Part shown: positions 3,001 through 41,960 of the stretch, piece after piece
How positions within the stretch are numbered: position 1 is the first letter of the stretch
Layout: each line of letters starts with the position of its first letter
Virus record (IMG/VR): IMGVR_UViG_3300020468_000003
Coordinates: 41,045 to 105,044 of that record
Reading direction: 5' to 3' (one strand)
Origin: a virus
DNA length: 64,000 bases
The notes under the pieces: model-generated
The model's input: the letters and a program-made list of their open reading frames with translations, nothing else
Database searches by the model: none
Told to the model about the DNA's origin: nothing
Position numbers and translations under genes: made by a program

Positions 3001-4447
3001 TATCAACGCGATCATTTATTTTTAAACTTGCTTTATCAATTGTAGACTTTAAAGTAAACTGTTTTGTACCTGTATCAATATTAGAACATTCATAACTGGA
3101 ACTAGTATTGTATATGAAAGAATTAGCAAATCTTTCCTTATCAGTTCTATCTGCTGCTGATACTGGATTATTAATTACATCTCCTAATTCTTTAACTGTT
3201 ATTTTTTCATTAACTAATGCAAGACCTGCATCTTTTGCAAGATTTATATTTGATACTATTGCTGCTACTCTTAAGTTAACTGGTTTAGTGAAATCTCCAT
3301 TTTCGTAACCAAATATAATTTTGTCAGATCTAATATCAGCAGCTGCTGTAATATCATTATCAATACCAGAACAATTTAAAAATTGGTTTATTGTTTTATC
3401 AGTATATGTTATAGTGTTAATACCACTAAGAACAGTTCCAGTTGCATCAAACCCAACAGTAGAATCAACTGTAATTACTGAAGATCCAGCTGAAACATTA
3501 GTTATAGATTTTGTATTAGGAGTTACTTCAAAATCCCCTTCAATGAGATCTTTATTACTATATCCAATAAACAGTGCTAACTTATAATATGTCTTATTAT
3601 TTCTAGTTAATATTTCAATTTCAGATACTGCTGCTTTTGTTCTAGGATTACTTTTACTATAAATTGTTTGTCCTACTAATTTATTAACATCTCCTGATAG
3701 TTTTTCTACTAAAACTATTTCTCTTCTAATATATTCTGCATCAGAGGGTTTTAATAGAAACTGTTCTAAGTCAATAACAGAAGGTGAAACACCAAATAAA
3801 ACTTTGTAGAGTATTCTAAATGATTCTTCTGTACCTTTTGATTGATAAAAAGTTCTTGCTTCTTTAATAAAATTACCAGCATCCAATTCAGGTACGAAAC
3901 CTACATCTTCTAAACCAGGTGTATATGAATATTTTATCTTTTTATAAAATTCTTTTAAAAATAAAGAACTTAAATTCTGTACTGGAGATTCATTAGTATG
4001 ATCTGCACTAACCGATGTATCAAATACAAGTTCTTCTGAATCACTAAGACTATGGTAGGATGTTATTCCACTAAAACCACGTACACAACCTGTAAAAGTA
4101 TTTGTAGTTAAACCAGTATATGTAATTATTTCATCATCAATCTTAAGAAGACCATATTCATTAGGAAATCCTCTTGTACTTTCAACAGTAATAGTACTAT
4201 CTGTTGAAACAGAATCTGAAGTAAGAGAAGTAACACCTACAATAACTTGTGGTGTTAATTGGTCAAGACTTAAATACTGGTCAAGATTATCAACCAGGTC
4301 AATAGGACCTCCTTGATACTCCTGTGAACGGTAGTATTGCTGAAAGAATTCTACTGTCTTAGGACTTTGATCTAAAATATATTCAGGTAATTGTCCTTCT
4401 ATCAGTTGGTGAACCTTTACTCTCGATTCGATACCAGTTTGTATCAT
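1..4447 (-). CDS. gp7: Baseplate wedge initiator gp7-like large structural protein (runs off left edge)
   Basis: ATG at 4447 gives MIQTGIESRVKVHQLIEGQLPEYILDQSPKTVEFFQQYYRSQEYQGGPIDLVDNLDQY..., the typical cyanomyovirus gp7 N-terminus, directly after gp6. It is absent from the ORF track, presumably because there is no stop in the window; I did not translate all 4.4 kb. Confidence 0.8.
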   Translation of the reverse strand, partial: MIQTGIESRVKVHQLIEGQLPEYILDQSPKTVEFFQQYYRSQEYQGGPIDLVDNLDQYLSLDQLTPQVIVGVTSLTSDSVSTDSTITVESTRGFPNEYGLLKIDDEIITYTGLTTNTFTGCVRGFSGITSYHSLSDSEELVFDTSVSADHTNESPVQNLSSLFLKEFYKKIKYSYTPGLEDVGFVPELDAGNFIKEARTFYQSKGTEESFRILYKVLFGVSPSVIDLEQFLLKPSDAEYIRREIVLVEKLSGDVNKLVGQTIYSKSNPRTKAAVSEIEILTRNNKTYYKLALFIGYSNKDLIEGDFEVTPNTKSITNVSAGSSVITVDSTVGFDATGTVLSGINTITYTDKTINQFLNCSGIDNDITAAADIRSDKIIFGYENGDFTKPVNLRVAAIVSNINLAKDAGLALVNEKITVKELGDVINNPVSAADRTDKERFANSFIYNTSSSYECSNIDTGTKQFTLKSTIDKASLKINDRVDIINDSTKEVKLTNAKVTAIDFNDKQVTLDYTGFSTDASIPHSIRRVPKKTTSKFVPLQYSDLFADVQNVYSEDLDFGFYGEEFLYVASNSLPSYTFRQDTVPSTPSIVVGTAITFIGAGNTETNALQADTGELAYSIINFPTDVPFLTGDEVVYEPENVAITGLDTGKSYYVRVLNDKNKIKLYSSNSFIQGDLNLEFDPLIVGVGGKHTFTLRSVHQKQIEPQKLLRKFPLIPRENDGLDTTTETVGMMINGVEIKNYKSQDKIYSGPLTSVNVVNSGTGYDVINPPTMEVANTGSGTTALVRPVLSGSVDKILVDPQTKELDKVISVSITGGGPGNGVALEPVVEQSFLSASFDARLLTFGGGIGETAETITFLGEHNFADGEEVVYRTNGNPALGIGTFAASNADQNRFLIENTKYIAEFVNSKTIRLYFSETDFKTGINTVGFTTTSNSGIHRFRTFNGKKTLKSIRVIEGGSNYQNRELSVKPVGISTIDHLVNFKNHGFQEGDLVEYQNSGTVISGLVTTNQYYIFEKSKDQFRVADAGVAGTIRDNYDSKLYIKLDSVGSGFHQFKYPDIKLNINVSFGAAGTGVITATPYVRGNIIDAYLYETGTGYGSTTLNFERSPSVSIKNGKGASLYPVVVGGKLIRVDVRSRGSEYFSVPEAIVVGDGSGAVVRPIIRDGQLIEVVVISEGTNYTQAKTSISVTSAGKNAILSSSVRSLIINDAQRHGSEYLYPTLKKGLEYVNLSYSNEIASGEFNDTGTTHSPIIGYAYDGHPIYGPFGYSDPLDPTSGVRPLQVGYKLDPSIIVDRPSGFANGFFIEDYRYDATGDLDIHNTRFCKTPEYPNGTYAYFAGISTDGLFTPKFPYFVGKRFRSLNQLDDKDQSFDLNSSELVRNTFPHQLGITGSRNDFIIESQSFFSQESEIESTTKGSITGVDIRNAGINYKVDDVINFDNEGTNGGGASAIISKVEGATVTSIASSVSEFTNCTLQWSNNKIT

Positions 4448-25935: not shown

Positions 25936-26434
25936 GTTGTTTTAAATTAAATGCTAAAATAATTCTTTTATCCATAACAGGTGGACTAAAATGATATATC
26001 TCTGGGTCCCAGATTAATAAATCTCCAACCTTAACTTTAGATGTTGTTGTGTTACATTGATGCAACGGATCTTGAAAATAAGTAGATTGTCCCTCGGTTA
26101 AAAATAAACAACCAGAACCACTTATTTTTGTTCCTGTATGATTATGTATAGGATGAAATCCACCAGGTTCATACACTTGAACCCAAGAATTGTCAAATGC
26201 TTCTGCAGGAGCTATAGGTTCTAAAACTTTGTAAATCCACGGAACTATATGTGCTTCATTCTTTGTACCATAAGTTGTCCAAAGTCTTCCATGATCAACA
26301 TATTTTCCATACTTCTTACACCATTCTTCAACCTTATCAAGAAATCCCTCTGGTATGGGAATATTATCTTTAATAACAATTGAAGGTGGAAAAAGTTGTT
26401 GATGCTCTGGTCCTTTTTTCTTTTCTTCACTCAT
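25925..26434 (-). CDS. 2OG-Fe(II) oxygenase
   Basis: SWVQVY....HPIHNH, GDLLIW....YH, RIILAFN. Confidence 0.8.
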   Translation of the reverse strand: MSEEKKKGPEHQQLFPPSIVIKDNIPIPEGFLDKVEEWCKKYGKYVDHGRLWTTYGTKNEAHIVPWIYKVLEPIAPAEAFDNSWVQVYEPGGFHPIHNHTGTKISGSGCLFLTEGQSTYFQDPLHQCNTTTSKVKVGDLLIWDPEIYHFSPPVMDKRIILAFNLKQHDN

Positions 26435-26831
26435 AAAATGCCTCTAATCCAACTGGTTCTCCAAAACTATAATCATAAGTTAATGCATCATGACAAACAT
26501 AATGCGGATGATCAGGTTTTACACCTAATCTTTTACACAATTCAAGATGATTATCCTCCATGAGTTCTACTGCATACAACATATTGTTTAGTATGTGTTC
26601 CTCATCATGATACTGCAGCAATTTAGTTTTAAGAGTAACTAAAAAGTTACCACTACCTGCTGAATTATCTAGGAAAGTAGAATTAGGGTTCTTTTTTACA
26701 TCATCTGGTATATCATTTATCATTCTAGCACAAACATCCATAGGTGTAAACACTTCGCTAGTAGCATTTATCCTATCATCTGATCTTTCAATTACAGATC
26801 CTACACTCTTATTGTGGTCGTTTCTTTTCAT
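26427..26831 (-). CDS. Stand-alone SAM-binding half of an N6-adenine DNA methyltransferase (motifs X, I, II, III only)
   Basis: EVFTP, FLDNSAGSGNFL, LYAVELMEDN, VCHDAL; ends before any NPPY. Confidence 0.85.
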   Translation of the reverse strand: MKRNDHNKSVGSVIERSDDRINATSEVFTPMDVCARMINDIPDDVKKNPNSTFLDNSAGSGNFLVTLKTKLLQYHDEEHILNNMLYAVELMEDNHLELCKRLGVKPDHPHYVCHDALTYDYSFGEPVGLEAFYE

Positions 26832-29800
26832 AAAATATCAGGAATAGTTCTGAATAATTCTTTTGAATTAGTATTAACTATCCTATTCTTTAGAACCATT
26901 TGATGTACTTCATCAGATCTTAAATAATCTGCAAGTTTATTACTCTCCTCCTCAGAAGATGTTTTTATGATAACTGTAGATCCACTAATAGAATGATCGT
27001 AAGGTTTGATACGGATCTGTCCAAAACCTTGTCCACCGTATTTACTATTCATTACAACTCCATGTTGATTAATACAACAAGTATGCTGAGACTTATCAAC
27101 ATTAGTAACTTGCATCTCTCCATTTTTACCACCCATTGTAGTTATCATAGGATACTCTCCCTCAATCAATTGATTTAAGTTCAAATCTCCACGTTGATAG
27201 CGATGTCCCATATTGTTAGAAACATCTGAAACAAAATCTGGATTAGTAAATCTAATACAAGTATCATCAGTAAGTTGAATATTCTTTACTGTACCATCAA
27301 GATAAGTTAATTTTGTTAGTCCAGTGTATCCACGTTTCCATGTACAAATACATGTCTCTGTCATTGATATAGATGGAAATGTATCAGGAGATAATGCTTC
27401 AATAGAAACAATACCTGGTGTTGAAAACAAAGTTCTTCTAAACTTTGATGTGGATTTAGCAAAGTGTTTTGATCGAATTACTTCTGATACATAATCAGAT
27501 CTTTTCATTGCACTTAGATAAAAATGTGTATCTAAAGTTTTTGCACATCCACCTGTGGTTGCACCTGTTACTGTAGATGTATCTGTATATGGTGGATTAC
27601 CAACTGTAGCACTAAACTGCATTTTGTAATTACTAAGGTTGTCGGTTACATTAATTTTAGCATTAATCTGCTTTATTGCATAGCGATGAGTAGGATCGTT
27701 TTCCCACACCACTATGTCATCGGGTTCCCAAGATTTATTCTCTATTGCATATAAAGAATGAAGTCCAGAGGGATCTCCATGTATATACAACTTTTCAGTT
27801 GTATCCTTTTTTAAAGGAATCATCCTATCAAGAATATCTAATGAAAGTGTCTTTTGATTCTTTCTTGTTGTTGCAAGTTTCTGTAAGGTTCCACATTCAT
27901 CTTTAGACATAGAATGTTCAATATCTATGATTCCTTGATTAATTCTATTGATCCAAGATTTAGGTATAATCTTTTGTTCTAAACAAGCTTTGATAATACC
28001 AGTAGTGTCTCCTGTGTCATGTTCATAATATTTTGAACTAAGAATACTATCTACACTTTTAGGTGTGGATTTATTCTTTATCATATGGAAGATAACTAAT
28101 CCTATTCTCTCCATGTATGCTTGAATAGTTTCTGTTTTCTGTGCTATCTCAGACTTATCAAAATGTGTAGAAAATTTAGATGAACTGGTAAGTTTCTTAT
28201 TACTGTTTGCGTTAGCATTGTTTTCATTTACTGTAAAAGAACTCCATGAAGATAACTTTGCACTCTTCTGAAAATTATCAAATTCAATGTCTCCTAACTT
28301 AAGAAAATCTAATTGAGATACAATACCTGATATCAAAGATACTGCACTGTCTACATCATTAGATAGAATTTCGTTTAGACGTTCTGGTGTTACTTCTTCA
28401 AAATCAGAGAAGTATTCAAAGATAGGAACTAAATCAAGAAGTTCATATTCAGATTCTGTTAACTCATGATTCAAATCACATGCAGTAAAATACATGTTTC
28501 TGATTGTAGTAAAACAACGTTCTGGGCAAAAATCAATTACATCCCAAAAGTTTCTCTTTGTTGATCCACCACGGAAAGCAAACTGTGTCCATTGTTCTCT
28601 TGATGATCCTTCTGCACAATTCATAACAGTATCAATACCCTCTGCAGTTAGACCAAGAACATTTGCAGTTTTAGTTAAGATAACTGTAGATGTGTTAGTA
28701 TCAATATGTGATCTGATTGTCTCAGAATTTTCTCTAGTATCTGAAGTTACAACTAATGGTTTAAATCTTGTTGATTTAAAATAATCTACAAGTGCATGAC
28801 ATGATGCCATAGAAGGCAAAGTTATCATTACATGTCTACAGTTCTTTAGTATTCTTTTGTTATACTTTATTCCATCTTGAGTAAACACTTTACTCATAAA
28901 TTCATCAACTAATATTGGTTCAGCAAAATCATCCTCATCTTTGTTTACTCTAAAAATATTACCCATTGCATCAGGATCATCGCCATATAAGTCTTGATAT
29001 TTACTGGACTCATACTTTGCAAGAATCAATCTCATCTGTGGAGAATTTACATACTCCTTTATACCTTGCAATTTATACAATTGCTCCTCAAAATATGAAT
29101 ATACAAATCTAAATTTAGGAAAATCTTCTAAGATTTTATGTGCAGTTCCTGAGACATACAATACTTTTGTATCGAAGTGATCTCTAAGACTTATCCATTG
29201 ATCTCCCTCATATCCAAGATGTGCTTCATCGAATACTATTAGATCAATATTACAAGGTAGATTCTTATATCTGTTAGGAGCTTGAATAGTAGAATATAGA
29301 ACTATTTGTTTTTCAGTTCCCATCCAATACTCTATCTCATTCTTAAACTGATCTACTTCACCATCACGAATATCAATGAATATAATATTATCAAAGTTTT
29401 TAAACTGTTGGGAATCATCTCTCCATGATTGTTTAGGAGAATTTCTATATGAAACAACTAAGGATACCTTAACATTACTCTCTACAATAGAGGAAAGAAC
29501 CATTGTAGATTTACCTGCACGACACTTAGCAAATAACAAATACTCTTTCCATTCATCCCATGTTGAAGTTATCTCAGATACAAATTCTTTTTGGTGTTTG
29601 CGAAGTTTACGATATTCTTTTTCCTCTACATTATTTGTAAAAAACTCTTCTTCAATAAGATCCTTTACAACATCAATACTTAAACCATGACCATCTTCAA
29701 TTTTATAAGTCTCTCTACCAGTTTGTGTAATACCACGTTGTTTTTTTAACCAACTATGTATCTCATGATCTCTACCATCAAAATCTGTCCACCATCCTCT

Positions 29801-29947
29801 CTTTATTCTTGCACTACCAACTGCTGCTAAATCTTGTTTTGACTTACCATAGTCTCCACCTTTATGTCTATCTTCATATGTGTGTATGGTTTCTCCTAAA
29901 CCGAAGGCAGACGGATTACCTTTAAACCCGTCAAGGTAAATGTTCAT
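26828..29947 (-). CDS. Multidomain GIY-YIG/T5orf172-like + SF2 helicase + N6-MTase catalytic/TRD protein
   Basis: AKCRAGKST (Walker A), FDEAH, SGTA, QFAFRGG; VGNPPY; N-terminal IY...GET..T.E.R...DHEIH..LK...GRE pattern. Confidence 0.8.
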   Translation of the reverse strand: MNIYLDGFKGNPSAFGLGETIHTYEDRHKGGDYGKSKQDLAAVGSARIKRGWWTDFDGRDHEIHSWLKKQRGITQTGRETYKIEDGHGLSIDVVKDLIEEEFFTNNVEEKEYRKLRKHQKEFVSEITSTWDEWKEYLLFAKCRAGKSTMVLSSIVESNVKVSLVVSYRNSPKQSWRDDSQQFKNFDNIIFIDIRDGEVDQFKNEIEYWMGTEKQIVLYSTIQAPNRYKNLPCNIDLIVFDEAHLGYEGDQWISLRDHFDTKVLYVSGTAHKILEDFPKFRFVYSYFEEQLYKLQGIKEYVNSPQMRLILAKYESSKYQDLYGDDPDAMGNIFRVNKDEDDFAEPILVDEFMSKVFTQDGIKYNKRILKNCRHVMITLPSMASCHALVDYFKSTRFKPLVVTSDTRENSETIRSHIDTNTSTVILTKTANVLGLTAEGIDTVMNCAEGSSREQWTQFAFRGGSTKRNFWDVIDFCPERCFTTIRNMYFTACDLNHELTESEYELLDLVPIFEYFSDFEEVTPERLNEILSNDVDSAVSLISGIVSQLDFLKLGDIEFDNFQKSAKLSSWSSFTVNENNANANSNKKLTSSSKFSTHFDKSEIAQKTETIQAYMERIGLVIFHMIKNKSTPKSVDSILSSKYYEHDTGDTTGIIKACLEQKIIPKSWINRINQGIIDIEHSMSKDECGTLQKLATTRKNQKTLSLDILDRMIPLKKDTTEKLYIHGDPSGLHSLYAIENKSWEPDDIVVWENDPTHRYAIKQINAKINVTDNLSNYKMQFSATVGNPPYTDTSTVTGATTGGCAKTLDTHFYLSAMKRSDYVSEVIRSKHFAKSTSKFRRTLFSTPGIVSIEALSPDTFPSISMTETCICTWKRGYTGLTKLTYLDGTVKNIQLTDDTCIRFTNPDFVSDVSNNMGHRYQRGDLNLNQLIEGEYPMITTMGGKNGEMQVTNVDKSQHTCCINQHGVVMNSKYGGQGFGQIRIKPYDHSISGSTVIIKTSSEEESNKLADYLRSDEVHQMVLKNRIVNTNSKELFRTIPDIL

Positions 29948-29971
29948 TTTCTCCGAATAAATTGGGTGCGA

Positions 29972-30049
29972 GAAACAAAAACTCGGACTTACAGGACGTA
30001 ATTTCTCTGCTGAACAAAGACAACCATAGATCCTTGCCTGTTTTGTTTC
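29972..30049 (-). ncRNA. Candidate structured 5' leader RNA (copy 2)
   Basis: Closing stem GAAACAAAA/TTTTGTTTC begins just after the predicted TSS; shares motifs with 14977-15095. Confidence 0.5.
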
Positions 30050-30058
30050 CCTGTATTA

Positions 30059-30113
30059 ATTATAGCATGAAAAAACCCCCTGTAAAGGGGGTTGTGACAG
30101 TTTCTAAACTGTT
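30059..30113 (-). promoter_or_regulatory. Early-promoter module driving the nuclease-helicase-MTase operon
   Basis: ATTATA-N28-TGTGACAGTTTCTAAACTGT with CCCCC/GGGGG terminator hairpin. Confidence 0.85.
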
Positions 30114-30412
30114 TTTCTTTTTCTCATCCTAGTGGTCATTTCAGTGTATTCTACAGGTGCCCACTCAACTTCCTTGGGTTTTGTTTTTCTTAGATTAGCA
30201 GTCTCTTTTTTAACAAAGGTAGAAGATTCTTCTTTAGTATTCTTTGCAAGAGATTGTCCAGAATTTAATTCCTTTGCAACTTCTGGTTCATCAAATTGTT
30301 TCAAATAACTTTTTCTGCTAAAAAGTTTTTTGGATTCTACAGCATCTTCAGAAGTTATTGGTTCATCAGTCATCGTATACTCGACATTCAAATGCGTCTG
30401 GATGATTATCAC
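30104..30412 (-). CDS. Hypothetical protein (true start probably MTDEP)
   Basis: ORF coupled to cp12; stop inside the palindrome. Confidence 0.6.
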   Translation of the reverse strand: MIIIQTHLNVEYTMTDEPITSEDAVESKKLFSRKSYLKQFDEPEVAKELNSGQSLAKNTKEESSTFVKKETANLRKTKPKEVEWAPVEYTEMTTRMRKRKTV

Positions 30413-30632
30413 AATAGATTTCTAAATGCTTATCTTCATGTCTAGTGTGCCAATCATTTATTTTACCCTCATTAGGGTCTACTACATCATCTTTATGTGA
30501 ATCTTCATAATTAGCATGAACTTCTTCAAGTTCAGACTTTTTATACTCTAATATACCATGATTAGTATGTTCTTTACCATCTTTAGGATCAAGATAAACT
30601 TCATGATTTAAATCGTGTTTAATAGTAGTCAT
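30366..30632 (-). CDS. cp12: CP12 Calvin-cycle inhibitor (auxiliary metabolic gene)
   Basis: C-terminal LEIYCDNHPDAFECRVYDD CP12 signature; late promoter TATAAATA at 30660-30667. Confidence 0.92.
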   Translation of the reverse strand: MTTIKHDLNHEVYLDPKDGKEHTNHGILEYKKSELEEVHANYEDSHKDDVVDPNEGKINDWHTRHEDKHLEIYCDNHPDAFECRVYDD

Positions 30633-40493: not shown

Positions 40494-41960
40494 TTATTTT
40501 TTAATTATGACTGAACCATTTAAAACAGATCTATGGGGAACAGATCTACTTCTACTCTTTGTACTTTCTTGTAACTCATGATTTTCCTTACATTGTTCTA
40601 ATATTTTTTTTGATTTGGGTAAATTTTTTATAAATTCATTAACTGAATCTGCATTTATCATTTCTAAACCATTACTAACTTGTATGTAACTATCAATGTG
40701 CCATTGAGAATCCTCACTCATAAATCCAGCTGGTATAAATTCAATGGAACATTTTTCTTCATATGCCTTCATCCAATCTGTTTTATTAGCAGTCATATAT
40801 TTCCAGAAAGGAGAGTCTATTCTATTTGTAGCATAATGTAGACAAATAAAATTAAATATATCCAGATAACTTTTCTCATTAAAATTATTATAATTAATCC
40901 TATCAAAATCTAAAAACTTAAGAGTGGTATTATTCTGCACAAAAAATTGTAATTGATTATAAACTATATGAAGTCCTGTAGATTCTAATGGTTCAATAAA
41001 TCCACTTGCAAGACCAACAGATAAACAATTTCCTATCCAATTTTTCTTATAATATCCTGGTTTGTAATGAATCACTCTAGGATTATCATTTAATTCAACA
41101 CCATGATTCTTTTTCAACCATTCATTATAATTTTTCTTTGCCTCTTCATCAGTAGTGAACTTAGATGAATATACATATCCAGTTCCATATCTTTTCTTCA
41201 ATGGAATTTGCCATATCCAACCATCTTTTGTTGCTTCTGCTTGTGTATATGATGGTATTTCTACAAGATTATGAGGTATCTGTTGTGGAATTGCTCTATC
41301 TAATGGAAGATAACCTGTAATATCAACCCACTCAGGGTTTAAATGTTTAAATAAGACACTATTAAATCCAGAAGCATCGACATAAAAATCAGCAGTTACT
41401 TCTCCTCTATTTTTAAACACAATACTTTGTATACTTTTTCCATCTGAATTTACTCTCTCTACTACATCATCAATACGATCTATTTCATCTTCAATATCAT
41501 TTAAAATATATTGTGAGACAATTTGTGTATCTATGTGGAAGGCATGATCATAATAAAAATCATGACTGGGAACTGTTGTTGTTGCATTATTATGTAATAT
41601 CCCTCCATTGTAAGTTCCATTTGGAATTGAGTATAAAGATTCTGGATAATCTTGTCCTGAAGGATCTATATTACACTTATTAAATCCATGAAAATATTCT
41701 CTATTTCTTGTCCAATTTTTAAAATTTATTCCCAACTTTACAGTGCTTTCAGTGTCTTTAATAAAATCTGAAATTTGAACATATAGATATCTTTTAAGAA
41801 AATCTACAAATGCAGGTGTTGTACTCTCTCCAACACCTATATTTTTTTTCTTACTATCGTAATATATCTCTACTTTAACTCTACCTACATAAAATCTTTT
41901 GAGCATAGCAGCAGCAATCAGTCCAGATGAACCAGACCCAATAATAATAATTTTTTTCAT
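40494..41960 (-). CDS. Flavin-dependent (tryptophan) halogenase-like protein
   Basis: GSGSSG, GVGESTTP, STVKLGINF, VDASGF, GWIWQIP, FIEPLESTG. Confidence 0.92.
   Translation of the reverse strand: MKKIIIIGSGSSGLIAAAMLKRFYVGRVKVEIYYDSKKKNIGVGESTTPAFVDFLKRYLYVQISDFIKDTESTVKLGINFKNWTRNREYFHGFNKCNIDPSGQDYPESLYSIPNGTYNGGILHNNATTTVPSHDFYYDHAFHIDTQIVSQYILNDIEDEIDRIDDVVERVNSDGKSIQSIVFKNRGEVTADFYVDASGFNSVLFKHLNPEWVDITGYLPLDRAIPQQIPHNLVEIPSYTQAEATKDGWIWQIPLKKRYGTGYVYSSKFTTDEEAKKNYNEWLKKNHGVELNDNPRVIHYKPGYYKKNWIGNCLSVGLASGFIEPLESTGLHIVYNQLQFFVQNNTTLKFLDFDRINYNNFNEKSYLDIFNFICLHYATNRIDSPFWKYMTANKTDWMKAYEEKCSIEFIPAGFMSEDSQWHIDSYIQVSNGLEMINADSVNEFIKNLPKSKKILEQCKENHELQESTKSRSRSVPHRSVLNGSVIIKK

Follow-up and report, generated by a model that had tools for sequence, protein, structure and literature searches.

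How does a phage DNA methylase bind S-adenosylmethionine (SAM) when the canonical motifs for doing so are found in a separate, downstream gene? The question is raised by a locus in a 64,000-nucleotide stretch of viral DNA (positions 41,045 to 105,044 of IMG/VR record IMGVR_UViG_3300020468_000003; hereafter, the window). Two open reading frames (ORFs) follow one another on its minus strand: one of 1039 amino acids (aa; 26828-29947) and, next downstream, one of 134 aa, with the stop codon of the first and the start codon of the second sharing the sequence ATGA. An earlier note, made from the DNA sequence alone, had described both ORFs and their overlap, and the coordinates confirm them. On balance, we consider it probable that the pair encodes a two-polypeptide, Type ISP-like enzyme, in which the small protein is a working SAM-binding half that pairs with a catalytic half located in the large protein.

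Judging by its relatives (S-CAM7, MA01, ACG-2014f, P-SSM2, S-SKS1 and Bellamy), the window belongs to a T4-like cyanophage. The 105-kb genome record, which is 49% complete, contains one small gene and one Eco57I-like catalytic half, both at this locus.

Two coupled genes and their domains

The small protein carries four methylase motifs: X (EVFTP, residues 26-30), I (FLDNSAGSGNF, 53-63), II (AVELMEDN, 87-94) and III (CHDAL, 113-117). The chain stops 17 residues past motif III, before motif IV, and has no part of motifs IV-VIII; NPPY is absent from all 25 aligned family members. These positions bear out its earlier description as an X, I, II, III half ending short of motif IV; all motif strings quoted at that time were found in the two proteins. 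The small protein belongs to phrog_4376 (E 1e-69), matches the PADLOC model MTase_II (E 1.7e-6) and scores 20.1 bits against Pfam N6_Mtase, a marginal match that covers motifs X-I (cut-off 20.4 bits). Its family numbers 892 cluster representatives at E<=1e-3, mostly stand-alone proteins of 120-175 aa, and is homologous to the N-terminal halves (N-halves) of ordinary gamma-class methylases (P0010, P0059 and P0074). Motifs X and I are unchanging within the family, F28, P30, G59 and G61 being invariant. The ratio of nonsynonymous to synonymous substitution rates (dN/dS) of the small gene is 0.11-0.15, and the protein is 60-70% identical across cyanophages, including across genera; their methylase partners can barely be aligned.

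In the large protein, NPPY (motif IV) is found at residues 784-787, within a match to phrog_3689 ('DNA methyltransferase') that spans residues 719-1036. A Pfam Eco57I match at 748-844 remains below the cut-off (21.6 versus 25.3 bits) and begins after motifs I and II. Residues 700-1039 were folded by AF2 (AlphaFold) with a 25-sequence alignment. The resulting model (predicted local distance difference test score, pLDDT, 88; predicted template modelling score, pTM, 0.84) retrieves M.TaqI (1aqi; Foldseek E 7e-12, template modelling (TM) score 0.66), CamA (TM 0.70), PglX and BpuSI. On this model, the methylase region is a gamma-type N6-adenine methylase whose recognition domain is TaqI-like.

Immediately before the catalytic half lies a segment that we call N1 (residues 700-775). 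With KLYIHGDPSGLHS at residues 719-731, it reads GDPSG for the glycine loop, WEND for motif II and NVTD for motif III, and has no TP in motif X; a canonical motif X and motif I are not found in the large-protein chain. The earlier note had called the motif I stretch decayed. The loop is indeed non-canonical, but among relatives with 35-45% identity GDPxG is retained, and in the model the segment forms half of a complete Rossmann fold. The further claim that the large protein lacks an N-half has to be given up: N1 aligns column for column with the canonical N-halves (motifs I-III) of relatives that carry the same recognition domain, and the model places it, as a helix followed by beta1-alphaA-beta2-beta3, in the half that normally binds SAM. 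Nonsynonymous divergence (dN) in N1 is about 4.8 times that of the catalytic half. An origin of N1 by recent duplication of the small gene is not supported, profile comparison of N1 with the small protein family by hhalign giving a probability of 0.2, that is, no similarity.

Ahead of N1, the large protein contains a linker, a superfamily 2 (SF2) helicase core and an N-terminal domain that is likely to be of the GIY-YIG/T5orf172 type, an assignment for which the sequence and model lines are weak but convergent. Seven residues (Y4, F15, G18, T20, R27, H64 and E79) are invariant in 12 homologues, F15 being a Phe where the GIY-YIG pattern has its second Tyr. The AF2 model of the domain (pLDDT 76) shows a beta-hairpin/alpha/beta topology that fits GIY-YIG; VIA matches it best, though weakly, to two GIY-YIG nucleases, HIGLE (Z 5.1) and Slx1 (Z 4.4, 3.9), and its top named ESM-Atlas clusters are all T5orf172/MUG113 (score 0.90). 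Pfam GIY-YIG is matched weakly by 3/12 members (E 0.036). Pfam returned no match for the N-terminal 115 residues, Foldseek none for the model at E<=0.001, and a Pfam search of the large protein detected no Mrr nuclease domain. The helicase is matched by Pfam ResIII at residues 114-268 (E 3e-7, above the cut-off). Its Walker A (K141/G145/K146), DE(AH) (D240/E241), motif III (G267/T268) and motif VI (Q455/R459) residues are invariant in 16 homologues of 32-40% identity. The family phrog_22930 matches residues 9-710; within this span, residues about 481-699 have no Pfam match. PADLOC gave no meaningful match for the large protein, and none to its Type ISP or IIG models; comparison of both proteins with PDB chains by sequence yielded nothing useful. 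The domain order put forward earlier (nuclease-like domain, SF2 helicase, NPPY methylase, recognition domain) is supported by the ResIII match, the ATPase motifs and the TaqI-like fold. Of the proposed likeness to Type ISP enzymes, the domain order stands, while the putative nuclease is GIY-YIG-like rather than of the Mrr type.

The small gene and its partners across phages

The small gene was followed through 80 IMG/VR loci that contain it and 58 metagenome loci that were fetched via the catalytic half. Homologues of the catalytic/recognition half (46-88% identity) come with four kinds of N-half: canonical (type A), GDPxG (type B, to which this locus belongs), LAKEPG (type C) or none (type D). 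In the 80 IMG/VR loci, an NPPY/recognition gene adjoins the small gene wherever upstream DNA is present; in the 58 metagenome loci, the small gene follows directly in nearly every case of types B, C and D and of the fused forms. The split arrangement is widespread in phages, the genes being linked in phage and metagenome relatives alike. That the small gene is functionally tied to the NPPY/recognition half, as postulated from this one locus, finds further backing in this near-universal adjacency, in Rosetta-stone fusions and in purifying selection.

At least six partner architectures occur. These include (i) fused proteins of about 1015-1052 aa, (ii) a helicase with a 320-337-aa partner, (iii) partners of 186-194 aa that run from motif IV, (iv) T5orf172-fused proteins of 404-539 aa, (v) a series of helicase, methylase, Mrr-like and small genes, and (vi) forms of about 1100 aa. 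The 186-194-aa class has no N-half at all and overlaps the small gene; P-SSM2 gp036 (193 aa) and S-CAM7 gp076, too, overlap the small gene, and they begin at motif IV or shortly before it. Judged by the motifs they contain, partners that start at motif IV cannot bind SAM alone. Single-chain forms are of two kinds. In P0026, P0127 and P0132, motif IV stands at residues 8-10 and is followed by the recognition domain and then by a small-like C-terminal domain (in P0026, Pfam Eco57I matches at 2-64 and N6_Mtase at 271-373). P0102, P0057 and P0009 are unsplit helicase-methylases in the normal order, and their N-half is 43-46% identical to the small protein.

Two loci, L101 (3-1928, small gene 2368-2772) and L139 (1569-3523, small gene 3471-3926), have two tandem NPPY/recognition genes with a single small gene behind them, which suggests that one SAM-binding subunit may serve several specificity subunits. 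Occasionally, a 157-aa ORF lies between the catalytic gene and the small gene.

Canonical-N-half relatives of this recognition-domain family are scarce. None is present in IMG/VR, and a scan of genome contigs found no member of the catalytic-half family in bacterial or archaeal genomes. The metagenome scan yielded two, of which one (L100) is evaluable; here the small gene is absent within 1.2 kb downstream. In L100, a 287-aa MUG113/T5orf172-like protein (1377-2240; E 0.04) follows the canonical methylase in place of the small half-methylase.

A natural deletion separates the large protein into two parts. Six phages (L012, L014, L015, L126, L127 and L141) are collinear with the window, with flanks of 77-93% DNA identity, and are without exactly 27623-29956 (codons 1-775), such that the same leader runs into Met776. 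In blastn, the alignment of L012, L015, L126 and L141 with the window breaks off at 29957 and resumes at 27622. The short protein belongs to a cluster of 187 member sequences and shares about 88% protein identity with its long-form counterpart. For the short-allele clade, dN/dS is 0.11 in the catalytic half and 0.15 in the small gene, estimates that are imprecise given the small divergence of the clade (synonymous divergence, dS, about 0.06). These 263-aa relatives are not miscalled versions of a large gene with a frameshift, because in them the helicase DNA is absent rather than broken. Since the short alleles are under selection without them, the nuclease, helicase and N1 are dispensable for the joint role of the two remaining parts, the catalytic half and the small protein, which on the simplest reading make up a working methylase by themselves.

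The point at which the alleles diverge is itself conserved. Throughout the catalytic-half family, and even at internal positions, the residue eight places ahead of the N of NPPY is almost always Met; the equivalent of Met776 is the start codon in the short allele, in the P0162 and P0201 clusters and in the permuted single-chain forms. Met776 (27620-27622) is a possible internal start site or a scar of module shuffling.

What, then, of N1? The GDPxG type of N1 occurs only with GIY-YIG helicases of the phrog_22930 type, in 46/46 evaluable loci (30 fused, 16 adjacent); five further GDPxG-type cases are unevaluable, because either the contig end cuts them off or, in L101, the methylase gene is the second of a tandem pair. 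The LAKEPG-type N-half comes after a different helicase, a 747-aa T5orf172-helicase. In the forms without N1, a phrog_22930-type helicase is never fused or directly upstream, and among evaluable loci N1 is never found without the small gene. Because the type of N1 tracks the helicase family, we read N1 as part of the helicase module, in which it probably behaves as a coupling element derived from the old N-half.

Which chain provides the cofactor half of the long form

In the two-polypeptide enzyme that we favour, the 1039-aa protein would comprise a GIY-YIG/T5orf172-like nuclease, an SF2 ATP-driven translocase, a linker, the N1 relic and an NPPY catalytic half with its recognition domain. The small protein would pair with this catalytic half, beta1 beside beta4, to give an N6-adenine DNA methyltransferase that is complemented in trans, in the long form as in the short. 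The catalytic half and the small subunit would be the core enzyme; in front of it, nuclease, helicase and N1 would be an optional addition that makes the methylase a restriction-type motor. N1 would be kept mainly as a coupling or docking element of the helicase module, not for cofactor binding; that it lies outside the Pfam Eco57I match was counted in favour of this division.

The small subunit may contribute more than the cofactor site. Its hydrophobic-acidic C-terminal tail, VGLEAFYE, resembles the C-termini of five cyanophage DNA polymerases (NLELFFS, NLDSFFS, TLESFFG and similar), and the tail motif ends 63/80 small proteins versus 20/2646 other ORFs of the same loci. The polymerase tails were taken from related phages because the genome record, at 49% completeness, contains no DNA polymerase gene. 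The T4 proteins gp43, gp55 and gp33 attach to the sliding clamp by C-termini of a similar hydrophobic-acidic kind (PMC2988020). As in the T4-family proteins, a short hydrophobic-acidic motif sits here at the very C-terminus, after a variable linker; unlike in them, the tail sits on a methylase subunit, and clamp binding is putative. We know of no methylase subunit that uses a clamp-type tail. Probably the tail anchors the enzyme on the sliding clamp of the phage; methylation would then be linked to the replication of phage DNA.

Several findings weigh against this reading. Firstly, the AlphaFold model of residues 700-1039 is a TaqI-like Rossmann fold with all its parts, N1 taking the canonical place beside beta4. 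The earlier note had named an intact SAM pocket in the large protein as evidence that would count against a split enzyme; at the level of the fold, the M.TaqI-like model supplies one, though the alignment contained canonical relatives, which may have driven the outcome. If the modelled state is the working state, then the small subunit is barred from the beta4 site, since N1 is already there. Three outcomes are conceivable: N1 is displaced; SAM is bound by the large protein itself, with the small protein serving some other purpose; or a short product starting at Met776 is the true partner. Secondly, N1 retains the GDPxG loop, the acidic residue of motif II (WEND) and usually the Asp of motif III, and is under purifying selection (dN/dS 0.19); it may still bind SAM. 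Thirdly, the canonical-N-half control consists of a single evaluable locus, the selection estimate for the short alleles suffers from their low divergence, and the scores that point to a nuclease are weak (VIA Z 5.1, Pfam E 0.036, no Foldseek match).

The first two of these points are the substance of the strongest alternative, a self-sufficient large protein. Here N1, with a TaqI-like variant of motif I, would bind SAM, and the small protein would be an accessory that tethers the enzyme to the clamp, helps in its assembly or specificity, or senses SAM and modulates activity. M.TaqI itself is without a canonical GxGxG loop, and the conserved tail of the small protein could point to a tethering role. 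Against it, the short allele remains under purifying selection, along with the small gene, although it has no N1; stand-alone methylases of the GDPxG type have no motif X helix; N1 never occurs without the small gene in evaluable loci; and profile comparison detects no similarity between N1 and SAM-binding halves. Every SAM-binding motif is invariant in the small protein, moreover, which a mere tether would not need. We judge a self-sufficient large protein to be unlikely, while granting it real weight.

A further possibility is one that we hold rather doubtful: N1 and the small subunit may compete for the beta4 edge, such that the enzyme acts as a nuclease with N1 docked, and methylates newly replicated phage DNA, by way of the same recognition domain, with the clamp-tethered small subunit docked. 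Its parts are equally tentative, namely that the full-length protein with N1 docked could not load SAM productively and would act on unmodified DNA as a translocating nuclease; that self would be told from non-self by replication-coupled delivery of the cofactor half; and that the locus might be a living intermediate of 'permutation by duplication', of which unsplit, relic-bearing, split and re-fused permuted forms are extant.

It is quite improbable, in our view, that the locus makes two products, with initiation at Met776 also yielding a 264-aa catalytic half as the sole methylating partner, and the full-length protein, N1 docked, serving as translocase-nuclease. The near-invariance of the Met across all architectures, internal positions included, and its use as a real start in the short allele, the P0162/P0201 clusters and the permuted single chains would fit such a scheme. 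A Shine-Dalgarno-like sequence is, however, not evident upstream of Met776, and no sign of internal initiation underlies the proposal; canonical single-chain relatives keep the Met too, and it may be a hydrophobic core residue or the scar of module shuffling. Finally, we find it barely credible that the small gene is what remains of a former methylase gene, decaying or without a functional tie to its neighbour, and that its adjacency is historical: it does end just before motif IV, like a truncated gene, but its conservation across cyanophage genera, the size of its family and its dN/dS disfavour a pseudogene, and translational coupling by ATGA, the conserved C-terminal tail and the fusions to catalytic halves also speak against it.

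Known systems, promoter region and neighbouring genes

An Mrr-family PD-(D/E)xK nuclease is the defining N-terminus of Type ISP enzymes, which move along DNA at the expense of ATP, cleave when they collide and hemimethylate an asymmetric site. The long form shares with LlaGI and LlaBIII the order of nuclease, SF2 translocase, coupler, gamma-type N6-adenine methylase and recognition domain, including an SF2 ATPase in one polypeptide with the methylase and recognition domain, and single-chain relatives of that order with a canonical N-half exist (P0102, P0057 and P0009). It departs from them in its GIY-YIG/T5orf172-like rather than Mrr/PD-(D/E)xK nuclease, in a degenerate, non-canonical N-half in cis, in the separate SAM-binding subunit gene downstream, and in being phage-encoded. 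With the M.TaqI/CamA/Eco57I family it has in common NPPY as motif IV, catalytic and recognition domains that model as TaqI-like, and a small protein homologous to the X-III part; in those enzymes one chain runs through X, I-VIII and the recognition domain, whereas here the X, I-III half has its own gene, which comes after that of the catalytic and recognition half.

Among the C5-cytosine enzymes, M.AquI and M.EcoHK31I are naturally split into two polypeptides (PMC3404938). There, as would be the case here, one methylase fold is built from two polypeptides. Those enzymes are split near motifs VIII/IX, however, while the present amino-methylase is split between III and IV, with reversed gene order, and its small half appears to serve many catalytic/recognition partners. 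Permuted EcoKI-like adenine methylases have been described in jumbo (large) phages by comparative genomics (PMC7824862). The gene order at this locus, and the residue order in P0026/P0132, correspond to the permuted or beta-class arrangement (IV-VIII, recognition domain, X, I-III). Both halves are nevertheless gamma-type by sequence (N6_Mtase/Eco57I), not of the N6_N4_Mtase beta family, and here the permutation takes the form of two genes, one of which still contains a relic of the old N-half. A literature search found no description of a stand-alone X, I-III subunit, a split cyanophage methylase or a T5orf172-helicase-methylase. New from this window are the pair of long and short alleles under one leader, the co-variation of N1 type and helicase family, and the match between the small-protein tail and cyanophage polymerases.

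If the small protein is a shared plug-in SAM subunit for interchangeable catalytic and recognition modules, then many 'hypothetical' 130-aa genes and 'truncated' methylase genes of phages would be halves of working enzymes, and predictions of marine-phage methylomes would need revision. The locus offers a natural series (unsplit, relic-bearing, split, permuted single-chain) for the study of enzyme splitting and circular permutation, and its near-isogenic long and short alleles are a ready-made comparison for the contribution of the nuclease-helicase front end. If real, clamp binding by the tail of a methylase subunit would be a simple means of confining protective methylation to phage DNA under replication.

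Table 1. Features of the locus, in window coordinates.
Feature	Position	Strand	Remarks
2-oxoglutarate-Fe(II) (2OG-Fe(II)) oxygenase gene, 169 aa	25925-26434	minus	PF13759, E 4e-7
Stand-alone SAM-binding half, 134 aa (predicted)	26427-26831	minus	motifs X, I, II, III; coupled by ATGA
Hydrophobic-acidic C-terminal tail, candidate sliding-clamp-binding motif	26430-26453	minus	VGLEAFYE
Catalytic half (motif IV onward) and TaqI-like target recognition domain	26831-27622	minus	residues 776-1039, start at Met776
N1, divergent N-half-like methylase segment	27623-27850	minus	residues 700-775; GDPSG, WEND, NVTD
Linker/coupler region	27851-28507	minus	residues about 481-699; phrog_22930 coverage only; no recognised domain
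SF2 helicase/translocase core	28508-29608	minus	residues about 114-480
GIY-YIG/T5orf172-like domain	29618-29947	minus	residues 1-110 of the 1039-aa protein
5' leader common to short-allele phages	29957-30058	minus	blastn
Sigma-70-like promoter (TTTACA, 16 nt, TG-TATAAT)	30059-30086	minus	11/12 consensus matches, best in region
GC-rich hairpin, terminator-like, overlapping the -35 element	30074-30093	minus	

The promoter module of its own that the earlier note ascribed to the locus agrees with a promoter-like site ~110 nt upstream of the large ORF, overlapping the GC hairpin (Table 1). The total count of promoter-like sites in the region is not above that of shuffled controls, and this site is a consensus match only. 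The hairpin groups with the hairpin-promoter modules of this genome.

Other genes recur around the methylase genes in related phages. In L006 (2939-3502) and L007 (3985-4587), proteins of 187-200 aa lie between the methylase and the small gene; their D...(Q/K)xK pattern hints at an Mrr-like nuclease, and Pfam returned no match for them. Mrr-like genes that stand apart from the methylase occur in other architectures, as in Bellamy (gp87), judged by motif only. In the L006 and L007 phages, nuclease, helicase, methylase and SAM half are four separate genes. A protein of 380-460 aa (P-SSM2 gp038; L004 4044-5432) recurs behind the minimal split pair (L019-L021, L045, L056 and L086); its weak match to DpnI_C, a methyl-DNA-binding winged helix, is below threshold (E 0.014) and makes it a possible methyl-directed partner. 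A DUF6267 protein (E 1.5e-82) recurs beside the small gene in L006 (3960-4871; Bellamy gp89) and many other loci, as does a second type of SF2 helicase (ResIII, about 390-470 aa) in several architectures.

In the window, the oxygenase gene overlaps the stop of the small gene by 8 nt, and both its position and this overlap are kept in long-allele and short-allele relatives. CP12 is a known auxiliary metabolic gene of cyanophages; an 88-aa protein with a CP12 domain (E 6e-7) is encoded just upstream of the locus, at 30366-30632 on the minus strand.

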